Shown: positions 1,109-25,618, counted from the first letter of the stretch. The stretch: DNA of 32,000 nt from Candidatus Saganbacteria bacterium (GCA_026387835.1 JAPLKZ010000011.1:30001-62000), one strand, 5' to 3'. Made by a program: numbers and translations. Notes: generated by a model from the sequence alone, not told the origin.

Positions 1109-1150
1109 TCCCCTCTATATATATATCGTCCAAAATAGAGCCAAATTTCA
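1109..1150 (-). promoter_or_regulatory. promoter-like box A: TGAAAT-N16-CGATAT
   Basis: Minus-strand read: TGAAATttggctctattttggaCGATATatatatagagggga. It lies 95 nt upstream of ATG 1034. The 20-mer tcccctctatatatatatcg is shared with box B. Confidence 0.55.
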
Positions 1151-1156
1151 CTTGGC

Positions 1157-1456
1157 TCATTCTTTGGCCGGGAACGGATCTATAAAATCCTTGCTTTGTT
1201 TCTGCTTTTCAAGATATTCGATCGCAGCCTGCTTAAACTCTGCTACAGATACATTCCGCCCATTATATGACGAGACATAATTATTATCGTCACATTCTTT
1301 TATCGCCGGTATCACATCGGACGTGTCGATTTGCTTCTTTGCGGCTTCGTCAAGTTCCTCGCGGGTGATATTCCCGTCCCTTATTGAATCTATCTTTCTC
1401 AAACGCTCATAAACCTTTTCGATATTCCCCGCGCCGGTCAAAGTCGCTTTTTCCAT
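1157..1456 (-). CDS. small acidic protein (99 aa) with a degenerate EF-hand-like loop
   Basis: ATG start with an AAGGAGA RBS about 6 nt upstream, 45 nt downstream of the 1337-aa gene. The segment DSIRDGNITREELDEA fits the EF-hand loop D-x-x-x-D-G-x-I-x-x-x-E except at position 3. A second, looser loop is YNGRNVSVAEFKQA. The Ca-binding call is tentative. Confidence 0.55.
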   Translation of the reverse strand: MEKATLTGAGNIEKVYERLRKIDSIRDGNITREELDEAAKKQIDTSDVIPAIKECDDNNYVSSYNGRNVSVAEFKQAAIEYLEKQKQSKDFIDPFPAKE

Positions 1457-1501
1457 GTTCGTTCTCCTTTTCTTTATGAAATTGATTCCGATTAATATGG
1501 A

Positions 1502-4500
1502 TTATTCTTTCTGCCCATATTTATTTAACAACTCTTTGTAAATATCATTTATAGCCCTAATTTCATTAGACCCCCCATCTCGCAAACATTCCCGCATTCG
1601 GGTTTTGGCGCGGCTTTTTATTTCCTCCGATTTGCAATATTTAAAAATTAAGAAACAATCTTTAAATGCTCCGATCTTAAGGCCAAGCTTCTTTTCCTCG
1701 CTGATGTTTTGATCTGAAGATAGCAAAAGCAATATTTCTGCCTGGCATAAACGGGCCTCAAATAAACTTCTGCCTTTTAAGAGGCCCAATTTATTTGGAT
1801 CGTAAATTATATCGAGTAAACTTTTTGCCGTCCGAGCTATTGTTAGTTTTTCATTACGATTGTCTTTGCTATTTGCCGAATAGATGTCATTTTCCGCCAT
1901 AAGAAGGATAAGCCTTGCGGAAATGGGGCCAAGTCCGACATTTGAATGAGACTCAAAAACAGTCCTAATATTGCCTATCGAAGGTGTTCCATCCCCGATA
2001 AGTGCGATTTTTGCCAGACCAGCCGCTTCAATAGCAAGACCAGCTCCTTTTGTCCGCAACGCCGGATCGTTTGTTCCCAATGCTGTTAATGCCGCGATAT
2101 AGGCGCATTCCGCTATCTTTAACTGCAGTTGAAGCTTGTAATAGCCCTTTGAAAGGATGCCGGAAAAATACGGTTCTTTTAAAAGCGCTTCTAATGAGCC
2201 TTTTATATTTAAAAGAGCAGTAATATCTCTTTTGTCAATTGCTTGGCTTGCTTTCACGTCATATGCCACTAGCAAAGCCCTTAAGATGAGATCCCTGTTA
2301 AAGGAATTGTTTTTGATCAGCATAGCTTTTGAAGTATCGATATTATTTGTGTCTATCCCAAATGAATTTGGGATATCTGATATCTCTTTCGGTAGTTCAA
2401 CTTCCTCTGTCAGATCTTTAGCTCTATAGTATTTGGCAAGAAGAGCTTCGGCCTGCAGGACTTTTGCTGTCATAATATCTCTTTCTGAATCTTTTGTTTT
2501 CGTAATACCAGCGACGGCCTTGGCGATATCTATCACATGATCAAAGCTGATAGGGGAGTCTACTTTTTCTTCGTAAGTATCTATTGCCTGGGCAAGGCGG
2601 ACCCGGGCGATTATAACCGCGGCTTTTACCGCAAGGGAAGAGTCGACGTCTTCAATAGCATTTGTAATTAGGGTCTGTTCGTACGCCGCTTTTTCTGTTC
2701 CAAAAGTCCATTCAGGTATGATCTTGCTTATAGCTTCTTGGAGCTGTGTTTCAACCTCGCCGGTATCTTTGTTCTTATTCCGGAGCAGATACCACTGGCG
2801 GAGGGAGGCTTCAACCATCAAAAGGGAAGCAGATTTATTATAGTAAGAGTCTTTTAGATATCCTCTTGCTGTTTGAGCGAGATTAAAAACGTTATTAATG
2901 CTCTCTAACGCATCTTCAAATGTATCGTCGATATTTGACAGTATCGTTTCGGCAAGGATCAGCAAAGCCTTTGCCCTTAAGTCTTTATGTTTAACTTTGC
3001 CAATGGCAGCTGTTATGAGAGCCAAGTCAGCTTTTGTTAATTTATTAAAGTTAAAGACGATCTTTCCGGCCTCAATGCCGGTAAGCGATGAAAGATACTG
3101 CTTCATCTTTGCGGTTTGAGCAGATGTCTGAGCAGATACGCCGTCCGCATTTCCCGAGGTCTTATATGCCTGTCTTAAGGAGCTTGAGACCTCCAGAGCC
3201 AGAAGGTCAGCACTGAGCTTAAAATACTCTCCTTTTATTCCTGATTTGTATATTTCGCTTTCAAGGACCTTTTCTATCAAAGCCCGCGCGTGCTTCAGCT
3301 TTTCGATGTCACTTCCCGCCTCAAGGAGTTTGAAAGTGACAAGATACAGAGCCGCATCGGCGTAGATGTCGCTGTCGTCGTCGGTAAGCTTCTTATTAAG
3401 GGCTTCAAGTTCAGCGTTTTCTTTTTTCTCAGCCTTTGGGTCAACGACTAAAAACCGTTGTATGGCCGGTCCTAACATTGCAAAAAGTTCGCTTGCAAGG
3501 ACAGAACCCCTTTTGCCGGTTTTGTCCGTATATGTGTTGCCCAGAGATTTGAGCACGAAATATTTTTGGAAAAGGCCTTCTATTTTCAGCAACCCCAACA
3601 TTTTTAGATCTCTTTCATTCAACAGGTCAGGCAGTTTCGCGAGTTCATTTTCAAGCAGTGACAGCTCAGACAGTTCTTTTTCAATAGAGCCCAGTTTATT
3701 TTCTTTGTTCATTTCGTGGTTCAGGGAAAGCCCCATCAGGGACAACTGTACCTTGAAGAGAGTAGCACGGAAGGCTGAAGTCATAAGTATCTTCAATTCA
3801 ACCGATACCGGCGCATCGGCTTTTTCTTTTGAAGGCTCTCCGGTCTTTGCCTGCATGGCTTCCCATTCTTTGAGGCATTTAATAAGTTCGGCATTGGCAT
3901 CCCGGGTATCGGCATCAAGCTTATTGTATGCCACGATCAAAGAGGCTTCACCGCACACGACCTTGAAGCGGGCGGTCATATTATTTATATCAGGCGTTTT
4001 ACATTTCCCGGCGATTTCAAGTGCCGGCCCTCTGGCATCCGCCACAACTTTAAAATATCCGTCGGCTTTTTTCCTATAGTCTGCCGCGGTTTTCGCATCC
4101 GATTCTGTTTTTGCCGCTTTGTCATAAATGCTGCCCAGTGCATTTGACGCGAACGCAAGCTCGGTCTGAATGACCACATACAGGCCGGCAACATCATTTA
4201 ACGCGGCCGTGTCTTTATTCGTTTCCAGTGTTTTTATAACATCAGATATGTCCTTTCTGTCATTTCTGTCGGGTTTGTAATAATTGACGGCATGGGCAAG
4301 CGCGGGATCGAGATATTTATTTACAGCGGTATCTATGAGGAGCTTCTTTTCCTCCAGGGTAAACTTGCCGGCCTCATTAGTAAGGCTGATATTGAAAATA
4401 GTTGCGAGTTTCTTTCTGTCATCAGTCGTAAGGGTGTCTTTGGTCGTTGACAGCGAGATGAGGAGATGCCCGATAGCTCTGTAAAGGTTTGTTCTTAACC

Positions 4501-24622: not shown

Positions 24623-24638
24623 CGATATTTTTCGGCGG
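24623..24638 (-). terminator. weak candidate intrinsic terminator after the GT2 gene
   Basis: Minus-strand read: GCCGAaaaataTCGGC followed by ttctcatattt. It lies ~45 nt after the GT2 stop and upstream of box F. The stem is only 5 bp and the U-tract is interrupted. Confidence 0.3.
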
Positions 24639-24680
24639 AATTTTACGGCAGAGGACAATTTGCGCTAAACATATTTATTT

Positions 24681-25526
24681 TTACCGCCTATTACTTGCTT
24701 TTTTCAAACCTTTATGTTGTTTTACTGTTGTTAAGATGCTCATCAGCATTTTATAGCCGTCATTCAACGGATTTACTTTTGAGTGTATATCGTTATCCCA
24801 TGATACCGGCGATTCCGTGATCTTAAATCCCAGCTTGTGAGCGATATAAAGGACCTCGACATCAAACCCCCAGCCGTTCACGGTCTGCCGCGCGAAAACT
24901 TCTTTTACTGCCAGCCGAGTTAAACATTTGAAACCGCATTGCGTGTCGCGGATGTTGAGCCCGGTCGCAAATATCGCGGTCTCACTGAAAAGCCAGTCTA
25001 AAAGTTCCCTGTAAAAAGGCTGGTGACGTAAAATGTTTGACTGCGGCAGCATCCTTGAACCGATCACGATGTCGGACCCGGCATCAAAACACGGGATAAA
25101 ATTTTGCATCTCGCCTATCTTGGTCGCATTGTCCGCGTCCATGAAAAGCGCAAGATCGCTTTTTGTCCGGAGCATGCCCTCCCTGACAGAAAATCCCTTC
25201 CCCATATTGGACCTGGGCCCCGTGATCTGCACGCGGCCGCTTCCCGCGAAGGAAGAGACGATGTCGGATGTCCTGTCAGTGCTGCCGTCGTCGACTACCA
25301 ATATATCGGCAATGCTTAACCCCGCGCATGAAAAGCCGAGGATACTTTCGATGGTCGGGCCTATACGTTTTGCCTCGTTGAATGCCGGGATAACGACAGA
25401 GAGAGAAAATGACCTGTCCATCGGCTTTGCCACTGCAGGTCCGGGAATTTGCGCAGGACGAAATCCGGTCAATGCCGACCTTATGCGAACAGACAGATGT
25501 TTTTCGCTATTTACCGATAATCCCAT
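24681..25526 (-). CDS. family-2 glycosyltransferase, polyprenyl/dolichyl-phosphate hexosyltransferase-like, 281 aa
   Basis: GT2 motifs are present: LSVVIPAFNEAKRIGPTIESI, ILVVDDGSTDRTSDIV, NMGKGFSVREGML, LFMDADNAT (DxD), GSRM...QCGFKC. The start is uncertain. ATG 25526 has no clear RBS, and the internal ATG at 25418 (MDRSFSLSVVIPAFNE) is an alternative. Confidence 0.85.
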   Translation of the reverse strand: MGLSVNSEKHLSVRIRSALTGFRPAQIPGPAVAKPMDRSFSLSVVIPAFNEAKRIGPTIESILGFSCAGLSIADILVVDDGSTDRTSDIVSSFAGSGRVQITGPRSNMGKGFSVREGMLRTKSDLALFMDADNATKIGEMQNFIPCFDAGSDIVIGSRMLPQSNILRHQPFYRELLDWLFSETAIFATGLNIRDTQCGFKCLTRLAVKEVFARQTVNGWGFDVEVLYIAHKLGFKITESPVSWDNDIHSKVNPLNDGYKMLMSILTTVKQHKGLKKASNRR

Positions 25527-25584
25527 ATTAATATCTTTACAAACAACAGCTCGGGCTTCCCATGCTTATTGCTTGTTCCCATCT

Positions 25585-25618
25585 GCATAGTTGTCGCCGG
25601 TATTTTAAGGAAATTTCA
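25585..25618 (-). promoter_or_regulatory. promoter-like box G: TGAAAT-N16-CGACAA, in the divergent GT2/GH2 intergenic region
   Basis: Minus-strand read: TGAAATttccttaaaataccggCGACAActatgc. It lies 70 nt upstream of ATG 25526. The palindromic core GAAATTTC also reads GGAAAT on the + strand, 18 nt upstream of CGTTATAGTAAA and just before the GH2 ATG. Confidence 0.5.

Follow-up and report, generated by a model that had tools for sequence, protein, structure and literature searches.

We have found that, in a 32,000-nucleotide stretch of a Candidatus Saganbacteria genome (hereafter the window), nine copies of the box TGAAAT-N16-CGATA stand ahead of the minus-strand transcription units. These boxes are very probably promoters of one discrete class (class 1), which, judging from the sequence, would be read by an alternative sigma factor descended from FliA (sigma-28), and not by RpoD or an ECF sigma factor. 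The exact pattern TGAAAT-N16-CGA occurs eight times in the window, always on the minus strand, against a shuffle expectation of 0.62, and none of 100 shuffles reached eight. The site at 15104 (TGGAAT) is a ninth copy with one mismatch, and the plus strand of the window holds no class-1 copy with a profile score of at least 8 bits. Both the pattern scan and the profile bear out the nine positions and the strand given in a preliminary description of this DNA. The 16-nt spacer is also exact in all nine boxes, and genome-wide we have counted 117 copies at N16 versus 7–44 at N10–N23. CGA is present in nine of nine boxes and the full CGATA in six or seven.

The boxes are placed regularly with respect to the genes (Table 1). 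Seven minus-strand gaps exceed 100 nt, and every one of them carries one box or a tandem pair (5590/5647 and 15104/15168), in agreement with the earlier statement that a box marks every minus-strand unit, and the remaining gene junctions are overlapping or at most 5 nt long, except for a single gap of 45 nt. The following ATG comes 25–106 nt after CGATA ends, close to the 29–95 nt reported before. The boxes had also been described as exclusively intergenic, which is correct for eight of them. In its longest frame, a divergent GH2 gene starts at ATG 25562, and the initial 57 nt of that frame overlap the box at 25618, which is intergenic only if the gene begins at the next ATG, 25646.

Table 1 Class-1 boxes and the transcription units (TU) that follow them in the window.
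Feature	Position	Strand	Description
Box ahead of TU1	25592..25618	-	TGAAAT-N16-CGACA; 31.7 bits; 66 nt from box end to ATG
TU1	25526-24681	-	GT2 glycosyltransferase gene (Pfam Glycos_transf_2)
Box ahead of TU2	24553..24579	-	Exact pattern; 38.4 bits
TU2	24528-19373	-	840-aa epimerase-domain protein, UDP-GlcNAc 2-epimerase and NTP-transferase/hexapeptide protein (Pfam)
Box ahead of TU3	19224..19250	-	Exact pattern; 41.4 bits
TU3	19191-17242	-	649-aa gene; no Pfam family above cut-off
Box ahead of TU4	17119..17145	-	Exact pattern; 43.5 bits, the best in the window
TU4	17071-15283	-	288-aa and 317-aa genes; no Pfam family
Box ahead of TU5, upstream of tandem pair	15142..15168	-	CGAGA as -10; 38.7 bits; 105 nt from box end to ATG 15037
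Box ahead of TU5, downstream of tandem pair	15078..15104	-	TGGAAT-N16-CGATA; 24.4 bits
TU5	15037-5716	-	Four genes of 892, 769, 919 and 526 aa; none has a Pfam family
Box ahead of TU6, upstream of tandem pair	5621..5647	-	CGATG as -10; 29.8 bits
Box ahead of TU6, downstream of tandem pair	5564..5590	-	23.0 bits
TU6	5515-1157	-	1337-aa and 99-aa genes; no Pfam family
Box ahead of TU7	1124..1150	-	Exact pattern; 27.2 bits
TU7	starts 1034, extends past window	-	Giant gene, ~2060 aa

In the window, class 1 would drive seven units; some form a nucleotide-sugar/glycosyltransferase set, and others a block of species-specific genes that are large and lack signal peptides. The 892-aa protein of TU5 has no homologue among the 64 other genomes of the class, and the 99-aa product of TU6 shares its first ~46 residues with six larger paralogues. 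As a separate observation, a terminator-like hairpin (1158-1138) has the -35 part of the TU7 box in its loop.

At the level of the whole source genome, a 1.5-Mb Saganbacteria/Margulisbacteria MAG, there are ~114 strong copies of the motif AAAWT-n-aG-TGAAATTTC-n3-AAAAT-n5-CGATA-n-ATAT-n-YR. Although genes of at least 100 aa make up 86% of the DNA, 107 of the 114 strong sites (94%) fall outside them; 101 of these 107 share the orientation of the next gene and 90 lie within 200 nt of it, and the median distance of the strong sites to the start codon is 44.5 nt. The profile scores are bimodal genome-wide, which means that class 1 is a discrete class. Among the 130 sites with scores of 14 bits or more, the -10 positions are occupied by C in 125, G in 128, A in all 130, T in 109 and A in 115, while the last base of TGAAAT is T in 123. 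We propose that TGAAAT(TTC) serves as the -35 element and CGATA as the -10 element, where the A of CGA would be the flipped-out -11 base. Positions 33 and 34 of the profile are Y and R, which fits a start site, and the pyrimidine-purine step 7–8 nt after CGATA is the predicted one.

Exact copies of the class-1 box are present in all 65 genomes of this class of bacteria (10–194 each, and at least 20 in all but two), versus 0–3 copies per genome for the reversed-pattern control in the same 65. Five relatives retain the box ahead of rpoD, and it also stands before the homologues of TU2, only 29–30% identical, in all three testable relatives (G092, G093 and G094). The putative regulon is far wider than the block of ORFans and adjacent glycan genes to which it had been tentatively confined: there are ~110 promoters per genome, including those of rpoD, rpoN and sugar-metabolism genes. 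The targets that we have sampled are metabolic genes or genes without assigned function, and no flagellar late gene is present among the downstream genes examined.

The -35 element is often extended to GAAATTTC, a perfect 8-bp palindrome, and phased A-tracts, suggestive of bent DNA, are conserved upstream of it and in the spacer. From these features, one might regard GAAATTTC as the operator of a dimeric activator lying beside an unrelated -10 box. We consider this very unlikely, since TGAAAT is ~95% conserved and the following TTC only 58–85%, CGATA follows at an invariant distance, and the orientation always follows the gene. Moreover, a second promoter class described below has a related but non-palindromic -35 element (TGCAAGTTT) with the same -10 box. 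The palindromic extension and the asymmetric conservation had both been noted before and are seen again in the genome-wide profile, and the choice of a -35-type element over a dimer operator is supported by the asymmetry, the fixed spacing and the gene-following orientation.

If class 1 is a promoter class, the next issue is which sigma factor reads it. As the box is very numerous and precedes rpoD, rpoN and central sugar-metabolism genes, it could be taken for the housekeeping RpoD promoter or a strong subclass thereof. Actually, several observations exclude this reading, which we regard as highly improbable. The RpoD of this genome is canonical (382 bits to RpoD_Cterm). The 16S rRNA gene has no class-1 box upstream and its promoter is TTGACA-N17-TAAAAT. 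None of the 46 tRNA genes is preceded by a class-1 box (best score 6.7 bits), and many are of the TATAAT type: ~14 of the 46 have an exact TATAAT upstream, and five match at least 10 of the 12 consensus positions. TATAAT also ranks among the hexamers with the highest enrichment upstream of genes, and the class-1 scores are bimodal rather than graded. The preliminary description had offered two alternatives, a general promoter consensus or the regulon of an alternative sigma factor, and had proposed housekeeping genes as the test; with the 16S and all 46 tRNA genes lacking the box, the former has to be abandoned and the latter is upheld.

Besides RpoD, the genome encodes three other sigma-70-family proteins, i.e., an ECF sigma factor (163 aa), a FliA/WhiG-like protein of 249 aa (sigma-249) and a protein of 191 aa with a FliA-like region 4 (sigma-191). 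An ECF-type factor had been suspected, because the outline of the box resembles the consensus of B. subtilis SigW, TGAAAC-N16-CGTA, and one such factor is indeed encoded. Class 1 does share with ECF promoters two short boxes 16 nt apart, a high information content, a G/TGAAA-type -35 and a CG-initiated -10. On the other hand, ECF promoters have an AAC-containing -35 and a CGT-type -10, whereas class 1 has no AAC and reads CGA, with A in 130 of 130 sites. In addition, the ECF factor does not co-occur with the motif. It is missing in 19 of the 65 genomes, eight of which are at least 90% complete and hold 29–121 boxes each; examples of genomes without it are G139 (100% complete, 38 boxes), G104 (121 boxes) and G103 (69 boxes). 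No class-1 box was found upstream of the ECF gene either. We therefore give hardly any credit to a SigW-like reading by the 163-aa factor.

Both FliA-like sigma factors are encoded inside flagellar-type gene clusters, and sigma-191 is the last gene of the cluster that contains flhA. According to Pfam, sigma-191 consists only of region 2 (26-98) and region 4 (138-187), with ~40 residues between them and no room for domain 3. Against the FliA/WhiG model TIGR02479 (cut-off 189.6) it scores 81.8 bits in two pieces, and sigma-249 scores 140 bits. Judged by its best hits sigma-191 is FliA-like, yet it is not a standard FliA/WhiG member. Its two-domain form recalls ECF systems, although this candidate reader is, by sequence, of FliA descent. 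One copy of sigma-191 is encoded in each of 64 genomes out of the 65.

A second and rarer class of putative promoters, class 2, has the form ATGCAAGTTT-N14-CGATA, with the same -10 box as class 1, and heads both flagellar-type clusters. The two classes differ just before the -10. In class 2, 62% of the sites have C at -2 and 79% have A or C at -1, whereas class 1 is unconserved there (130 sites: at -1, T 54, A 42, C 32 and G 2; at -2, G 44, T 40, A 36 and C 10). The GC extension is read by an Arg (Pa R97, Ec R91) which is absent from sigma-191. At the residue equivalent to Pa Q228, both FliA-like factors have R in place of Q, and the recognition helix of sigma-191 (SESQVSR), which is closer to the canonical FliA SESRVSQ than that of sigma-249, could be read either way.

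On balance, we tentatively favour sigma-191 as the reader of class 1, and sigma-249 would then read class 2. In this cascade, class 2 would drive the flagellar-type clusters including the sigma-191 gene, sigma-191 would then drive the class-1 regulon, and in some relatives it would boost its own gene. In 5 of 12 relatives a class-1 box precedes sigma-191 by 480–720 nt, while in 12 relatives none was found in the ~8 kb ahead of sigma-249 (~4.6 kb scanned in G101). Such a proximal box is in line with the dual promoters of enterobacterial fliA, though in the source genome no class-1 box lies directly upstream of sigma-191. Phylogenetic profiles do not tell the two factors apart, as nearly every genome has both; in one genome (G033, 94% complete) no sigma-191 was found, yet 22 boxes are present.

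The reverse pairing, in which sigma-249 reads class 1 and sigma-191 reads class 2 to drive both flagellar-type clusters including its own, seems unlikely but deserves some weight. Sigma-249 is the better FliA/WhiG match (140 vs 82 bits), in 7 of 12 relatives class 2 heads the cluster with sigma-191 as its last gene, which could be autoregulation, and the promoter topology fits equally well as a mutual loop. It is opposed by the proximal class-1 box, which stands before sigma-191 and not sigma-249, and by sigma-191 lacking the Arg and the domain for the C-rich extension, which is seen in class 2 only. Furthermore, neither sigma-249 nor FlgI was found in G142 (95% complete, 107 class-1 boxes), possibly owing to a missing contig.

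The comparison with sigma-28 systems (FliA, SigD and WhiG) supports a FliA-type reader of class 1. Class 1 resembles their promoters in the -10 core CGATA(A), the strict spacing and a predicted start 7–8 nt after the -10, and the likely readers are FliA-like and encoded inside flagellar-type clusters. In the fliC promoter of P. aeruginosa, the elements are TCTAAAG (-36..-30) and GCCGATAA (-15..-8), with A-11 flipped (PMC12784957). Sigma-28 promoters carry TAAA(G) 15 nt ahead of GCCGATAA. Counted from the C of CGATA, the AAA of class 1 at -20..-18 is in the fliC register, but its flanks differ (GAAAT vs TAAAG). The class-1 -35 is (g)TGAAATTTC and not TCTAAAG, phased A-tracts are conserved, and the GC extended -10 before CGATAA is absent, with no G/C preference over the 130 sites. 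Unlike FliA, the favoured reader has no domain 3. Model FliA regulons have several times fewer promoters than the ~110 per 1.5-Mb genome here. The class-1 targets are also not flagellin, motor or chemotaxis genes, none of which is detectable in the source genome: we have found no match to Flagellin_N, Flagellin_C, FliS, FlgM or MCP, and only sub-threshold matches to MotA and FliG_C.

Flagellin_N is missing from 64 of the 65 genomes of the class. The flagellar-type genes that are kept encode the export gate, rod, rings, parts of the C-ring and two FliK-like rulers, together with a FliG without torque domain. One may speculate that this flagellum-derived apparatus has been kept as a protein exporter with its 'late gene' logic, and that class 1 is the 'late substrate' set expressed on completion. 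The large, fast-evolving proteins of the window without signal peptides would then be among the late substrates, and the two FliA paralogues would form the cascade. We hold this idea to be rather improbable, and as the class-1 regulon includes cytoplasmic enzymes and rpoD, at most a part of it could be exporter substrates.

FliA-family factors with non-motility targets are familiar from other bacteria. Streptomyces WhiG is one example, and the sigma-28 regulon of Chlamydia is small and developmental. Class 1 is similar in that a FliA-family sigma factor appears to be kept without flagellin and to serve non-motility genes. In Chlamydia trachomatis, sigma-28 of a non-flagellated bacterium acts on late genes (PMC12282069). 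The system described here differs from it in having two paralogues, two promoter classes, a ~10-fold larger regulon and retained basal-body and export genes. Filament-less basal bodies kept as probable exporters have been described in Buchnera (PMC8109811) and Lysobacter enzymogenes (PMC7688988). The present genomes are comparable to these in genomic context only, with export apparatus, rod and ring genes but no flagellin. We know of no comparable promoter class or sigma cascade described for those basal bodies.

We have found no published work on transcription in Saganbacteria and Margulisbacteria, uncultured sister groups of Cyanobacteria. A promoter class as near-invariant as class 1 may serve as an annotation tool, which marks the starts of transcription units and points to small or unannotatable genes. 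Class-1 promoters and their cognate sigma factor are also candidates for orthogonal expression parts. For the organism itself, the regulon would cover ~10% of transcription units, and would tie the main sigma gene, sigma-54, sugar metabolism and most of the lineage-specific genes to a FliA-type factor. In evolutionary terms, it seems that a member of the flagellar sigma family was duplicated and shortened to an ECF-like two-domain form, and may have been raised to a global regulator, in a lineage that has kept its basal-body genes and shows no detectable flagellin.

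We have searched both strands of the window for TGAAAT-N16-CGA, the core of the class-1 promoter box, and have found eight exact matches, all on the minus strand; these are the eight exact boxes that the preliminary description had located. In 100 dinucleotide-preserving shuffles of the window the mean was 0.62 matches, and no shuffle had eight. Site 15104 reads TGGAAT-N16-CGATA and scores 24.4 bits with the genome-wide class-1 profile, by which no plus-strand site of the window reaches 8 bits. The minus-strand ORFs form seven groups, within which genes abut or overlap (the sole exception is a 45-nt gap), and the gaps between groups measure 122–245 nt. 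Since each of these gaps carries one class-1 box, or a tandem pair 57 or 64 nt apart, the earlier statement that all minus-strand transcription units are marked by the box holds. The next ATG follows the end of CGATA at a distance of 25–106 nt. Box 25618 had also been called intergenic, which holds if the divergent GH2 gene begins at ATG 25646 and fails if it begins at 25562. A sigma-70-type consensus scan gave 36 sites in the window against 33 expected, that is, no competing promoters, and an Rfam scan of the window matched no family. At box 1150, the -35 element falls in the loop and 3' arm of a hairpin (9-bp stem, GAGCCAAGTGAAATTTGGCTC, then TATTTT) that resembles a terminator of the upstream unit.

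The source genome, of which the window is part, comprises 1.5 Mb in 13 contigs and is 95% complete; its nearest RpoD relatives are MAGs labelled Candidatus Saganbacteria, Margulisiibacteriota or Termititenax. It is bacterial, with a 16S rRNA, four sigma-70-family genes and no TBP, and these three features rule out CGATATATATA as an archaeal BRE/TATA element. Genome-wide, TGAAAT-Nx-CGA occurs in 117 copies at x = 16 and in 7–44 copies at other spacings. An iterated profile with a bimodal score distribution gives ~130 class-1 sites, with the extended consensus AAAWT-n-aG-TGAAATTTC-n3-AAAAT-n5-CGATA-n-ATAT-n-Y-R. At a cut-off of 20 bits the profile retains 114 sites. Genes of 100 aa or longer, as called with a simple ORF-based caller, make up 86% of the genome, yet 107 of the 114 sites fall outside them. 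Among these extragenic sites, 101 are oriented toward a co-directional next gene, and 90 lie no more than 200 nt from it; the median distance to the start codon is 44.5 nt. Judged from sequence, this placement is promoter-like. The genome has ~876 putative unit heads, and the sites correspond in number to about a tenth of these.

One reading in the preliminary description took the box as the general promoter consensus of the lineage. This does not hold, as no class-1 box lies within 120 nt of any of the 46 tRNA genes (top score 6.7 bits, nearly all negative) or upstream of the 16S gene. Instead, TATAAT occurs without mismatch upstream of ~14 tRNA genes, in some cases together with a TTGAAA- or TTGACA-like -35 box, and five tRNA genes match at least 10 of 12 consensus positions; the 16S gene has TTGACA-N17-TAAAAT and an A/T-rich stretch upstream. 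In addition, TATAAT ranks second among the hexamers enriched upstream of genes, TTGA-N19-TA...T has its peak at the spacing that is canonical, and RpoD is canonical. Together, the missing boxes, the sigma-A-type elements and the canonical RpoD indicate that class 1 is a second, discrete promoter class beside the housekeeping type.

SigW-type ECF promoters, which have CGT in the -10 and AAC in the -35 element, share the outline of class 1 but differ from it in these two triplets. A closer likeness is found with sigma-28. In the P. aeruginosa fliC promoter, sigma-28 recognises TCTAAAG (-36 to -30) and GCCGATAA (-15 to -8); the A at -11 is flipped out in the open complex, the GC extension is read by R97, and S224 and Q228 of region 4.2 contact the first bases of the -35 element (PMC12784957). 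The class-1 AAA, at -20 to -18 from the C of CGATA, takes the exact position of AAA in the sigma-28 TAAAG, and the conserved Y-R step lies at most one base from the position of the fliC start site. By this shared register, the -10 core and geometry of class 1 are sigma-28-like, whereas the -35 flanks differ and the GC extension is absent.

A search of the source genome for canonical sigma-28 sites (TAAA-N15-GCCGATA) has shown none that stood out; it has brought to light a second box type with the same CGATA, class 2. GCAAG-N17-CGATA occurs there in 31 copies, against 2–9 at other spacings, and the form (A)TGCAAGTTT-N14-CGATA(G/T)ATA in about 21–25 copies. Each of the 65 genomes of the taxonomic class has 2–26 copies of GCAAGT-N16-CGATA (reversed control 0–2). 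The relatives compared are not independent samples; 106 of their sites give the consensus GCAAGTTTT-n-SSC-n3-TTA-n-C-(A/C)-CGATA. Aligned on TG, the -35 elements of class 1 (TGAAATTTC) and class 2 (TGCAAGTTT) agree in six of nine bases, while class 2 has one additional spacer base, a G/C patch where class 1 has the A-tract and, just before CGATA, a C-rich extension. The window has no class-2 box. Its plus-strand unit, where one of the two ABC permeases is fused to a DUF5074 domain, has a box of neither class.

Features of the window, of the source genome (C, contig) and of two relatives (G082, G097)
Feature	Location	Strand	Length	Remark
RpoD			347 aa	source genome; canonical
ECF sigma			163 aa	source genome
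sigma-249			249 aa	FliA/WhiG-like; TIGR02479 140 bits, below cut-off; regions 2 and 4 are ~107 residues apart
sigma-191			191 aa	short FliA-like; best matches FliA/WhiG, mostly via region 4
sigma-249 orthologue, G082	C5:120657-121357			two overlapping frames
sigma-249 orthologue, G097	C7:27313-28053			in-frame TAG
Cluster A	C13:24247-34012			sigma-191 is last gene
Cluster B	C9:128624-140070			sigma-249 internal
tRNA-Leu	C13:34087-34170	-		TTGACA / TATAAT-like promoter; between Mur ligase gene and cluster A
Class-2 box (example)	C9:128503	+
Class-2 box (example)	C3:255625	+
Class-2 box (example)	C13:23380	+
Class-2 boxes	C10:229189-243314	-		six copies
Hairpin	window 1138-1158
99-aa product gene	window 1157-1456	-	99 aa
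892-aa protein gene	window 12359-15037	-	892 aa	putatively class-1-driven
288-aa protein gene	window 16205-17071	-	288 aa
649-aa protein gene	window 17242-19191	-	649 aa
840-aa protein gene	window 22006-24528	-	840 aa	UDP-GlcNAc 2-epimerase-like domain, residues 48-377
Plus-strand unit	window 25562-32000	+		GH2, two ABC permeases, GH26/CBM9 protein

As for the reader of class 1, the ECF (SigW-type) sigma first proposed is excluded: it is missing from 19 of the 65 genomes, which keep their boxes, and eight of these 19 are at least 90% complete with 29–121 class-1 boxes each. Two FliA-like sigmas are left as candidates. In sigma-191, region 2 (26–98) and region 4 (138–187) are separated by ~40 residues, which leaves no room for domain 3. 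Since 64 of the 65 genomes encode sigma-191 and 58 encode sigma-249, and both occur widely elsewhere in the phylum at 30–43% identity, with 31–43% for the sigma-191 orthologues of the other taxonomic classes, a phylogenetic profile does not discriminate between them. One relative, G142 (95% complete), has neither sigma-249 nor FlgI detected; with FlgI missing too, a missing contig and a real loss look the same, and we have rejected G142 as a case of natural sigma-249 loss. The sigma-249 gene is interrupted by a contig end in G091, and the split and TAG-bearing orthologues of G082 and G097 may be pseudogenes or assembly errors.

Each of the two sigmas is encoded in a flagellar-type cluster. Cluster A runs FliK-like, FlgD-like (weak match), hook-like, FliM/N, FliN, FliO (weak match), FliP, presumed FliQ, FliR, FlhB, FlhA, two small unknown genes and sigma-191. 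Cluster B runs FliK-like, FlhB-C-like, FlgF, FlgG, FlgA, FlgH, FlgI, rod-binding protein, sigma-249, rod protein (FlgB/C-type), FliF, FliG (177 aa, N and M domains only) and FliH. Cluster B begins behind a class-2 box, 6.8 kb upstream of sigma-249 (6.2–7.1 kb in eight relatives), and in 7 of 12 relatives another stands at the head of cluster A, 8.6–10.1 kb upstream of sigma-191; in the source genome the head of cluster A, right after the tRNA-Leu gene, has a class-1-like box whose spacer measures 15 nt. Class 2 also heads the C10 block of genes without known function, where Pfam has found no late flagellar genes, only unknown-function genes and an EF-hand/dockerin-like protein. Five of the 12 relatives, from three families, have a class-1 box at 480–720 nt before sigma-191; directly upstream of sigma-191 the source genome has none, and none was found upstream of sigma-249 in the 12 relatives (4.6–8 kb scanned).

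Sigma-191 probably reads class 1, and sigma-249 class 2. This pairing is favoured because sigma-191 lacks domain 3 and the GC-reading Arg (Val stands at the position of P. aeruginosa R97 / E. coli R91), and the extension position before CGATA is conserved in class 2 and not in class 1. On the other hand, both sigmas carry the same residues, S and R, where P. aeruginosa sigma-28 has S224 and Q228, and the recognition helix of sigma-191 is the more canonical one. These features weigh against the favoured pairing, and the promoter topology would also fit the reverse one, with sigma-249 on class 1 and sigma-191 on class 2, as a mutual loop; the reverse pairing is nonetheless less likely, since a proximal class-1 promoter is found at sigma-191 alone. 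G142 cuts both ways: its 107 class-1 boxes speak against the reverse pairing, and its 13 retained class-2 boxes speak against the favoured one. That other readers are involved, or that both sigmas serve both classes, seems quite improbable. The proximal promoter of sigma-191 recalls the dual promoters of enterobacterial fliA (class 2 plus class 3 in that system).

In the window, class-1 boxes precede a GT2 glycosyltransferase and a three-gene nucleotide-sugar unit (the 840-aa protein with its 2-epimerase domain, a UDP-GlcNAc 2-epimerase, and an NTP-transferase/hexapeptide protein). The 840-aa protein has ~460 further residues without any family, and its full-length homologues in relatives are only 29–30% identical; despite this, the box upstream of its gene is kept in all three testable relatives. 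Ten further, putatively class-1-driven genes (99 to ~2060 aa) have no Pfam family and no obvious signal peptide. For the 892-aa protein, no homologue at E ≤ 1e-10 was found in the other 64 species-level genomes of the class, its own family included, and this suggests very young or fast-evolving genes wired to the class-1 promoter. As to the 99-aa product, its first ~46 residues are common (57–80% identity) to six paralogues of 261–917 aa on C5 and C12, in which another DG-rich, calcium-site-like repeat, the second, follows; the 99-aa product is perhaps a truncated form of these proteins. The 288-aa and 649-aa proteins have a common N-terminal region of ~105 residues (37% identity), and their genes lie in neighbouring units, each with its own class-1 box. 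Elsewhere in the genome, class 1 is upstream of rpoN and of rpoD, where the box is kept in five relatives. Among 19 further first genes sampled at random, we have found sugar-related ones (phosphofructokinase, class II aldolase, FGGY kinase, aldose epimerase), two radical-SAM and two FGE-sulfatase-like proteins, three weak matches, and eight without any family. A literature search has returned nothing on promoters or sigma factors in this lineage, and the Saganbacteria genome paper has no mention of sigma, flagella or secretion; we infer the promoter activity of class-1 boxes from sequence.

Overall, the flagellar-type gene set of the source genome covers export, rod, ring and C-ring genes and two FliK-like genes. 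There is no match to Flagellin_N, Flagellin_C, FliS, FlgM or MCP signal domains, MotA and FliG_C give sub-threshold matches only, and Flagellin_N is absent from 64 of the 65 genomes, closed genomes among them. These genes thus seem to build a structure without known filament or motor, while divergent filament proteins are possible in the lineage. On this basis we speculate that the flagellar-type apparatus may be an exporter, and that part of the class-1 regulon, at most, would be its late substrates.
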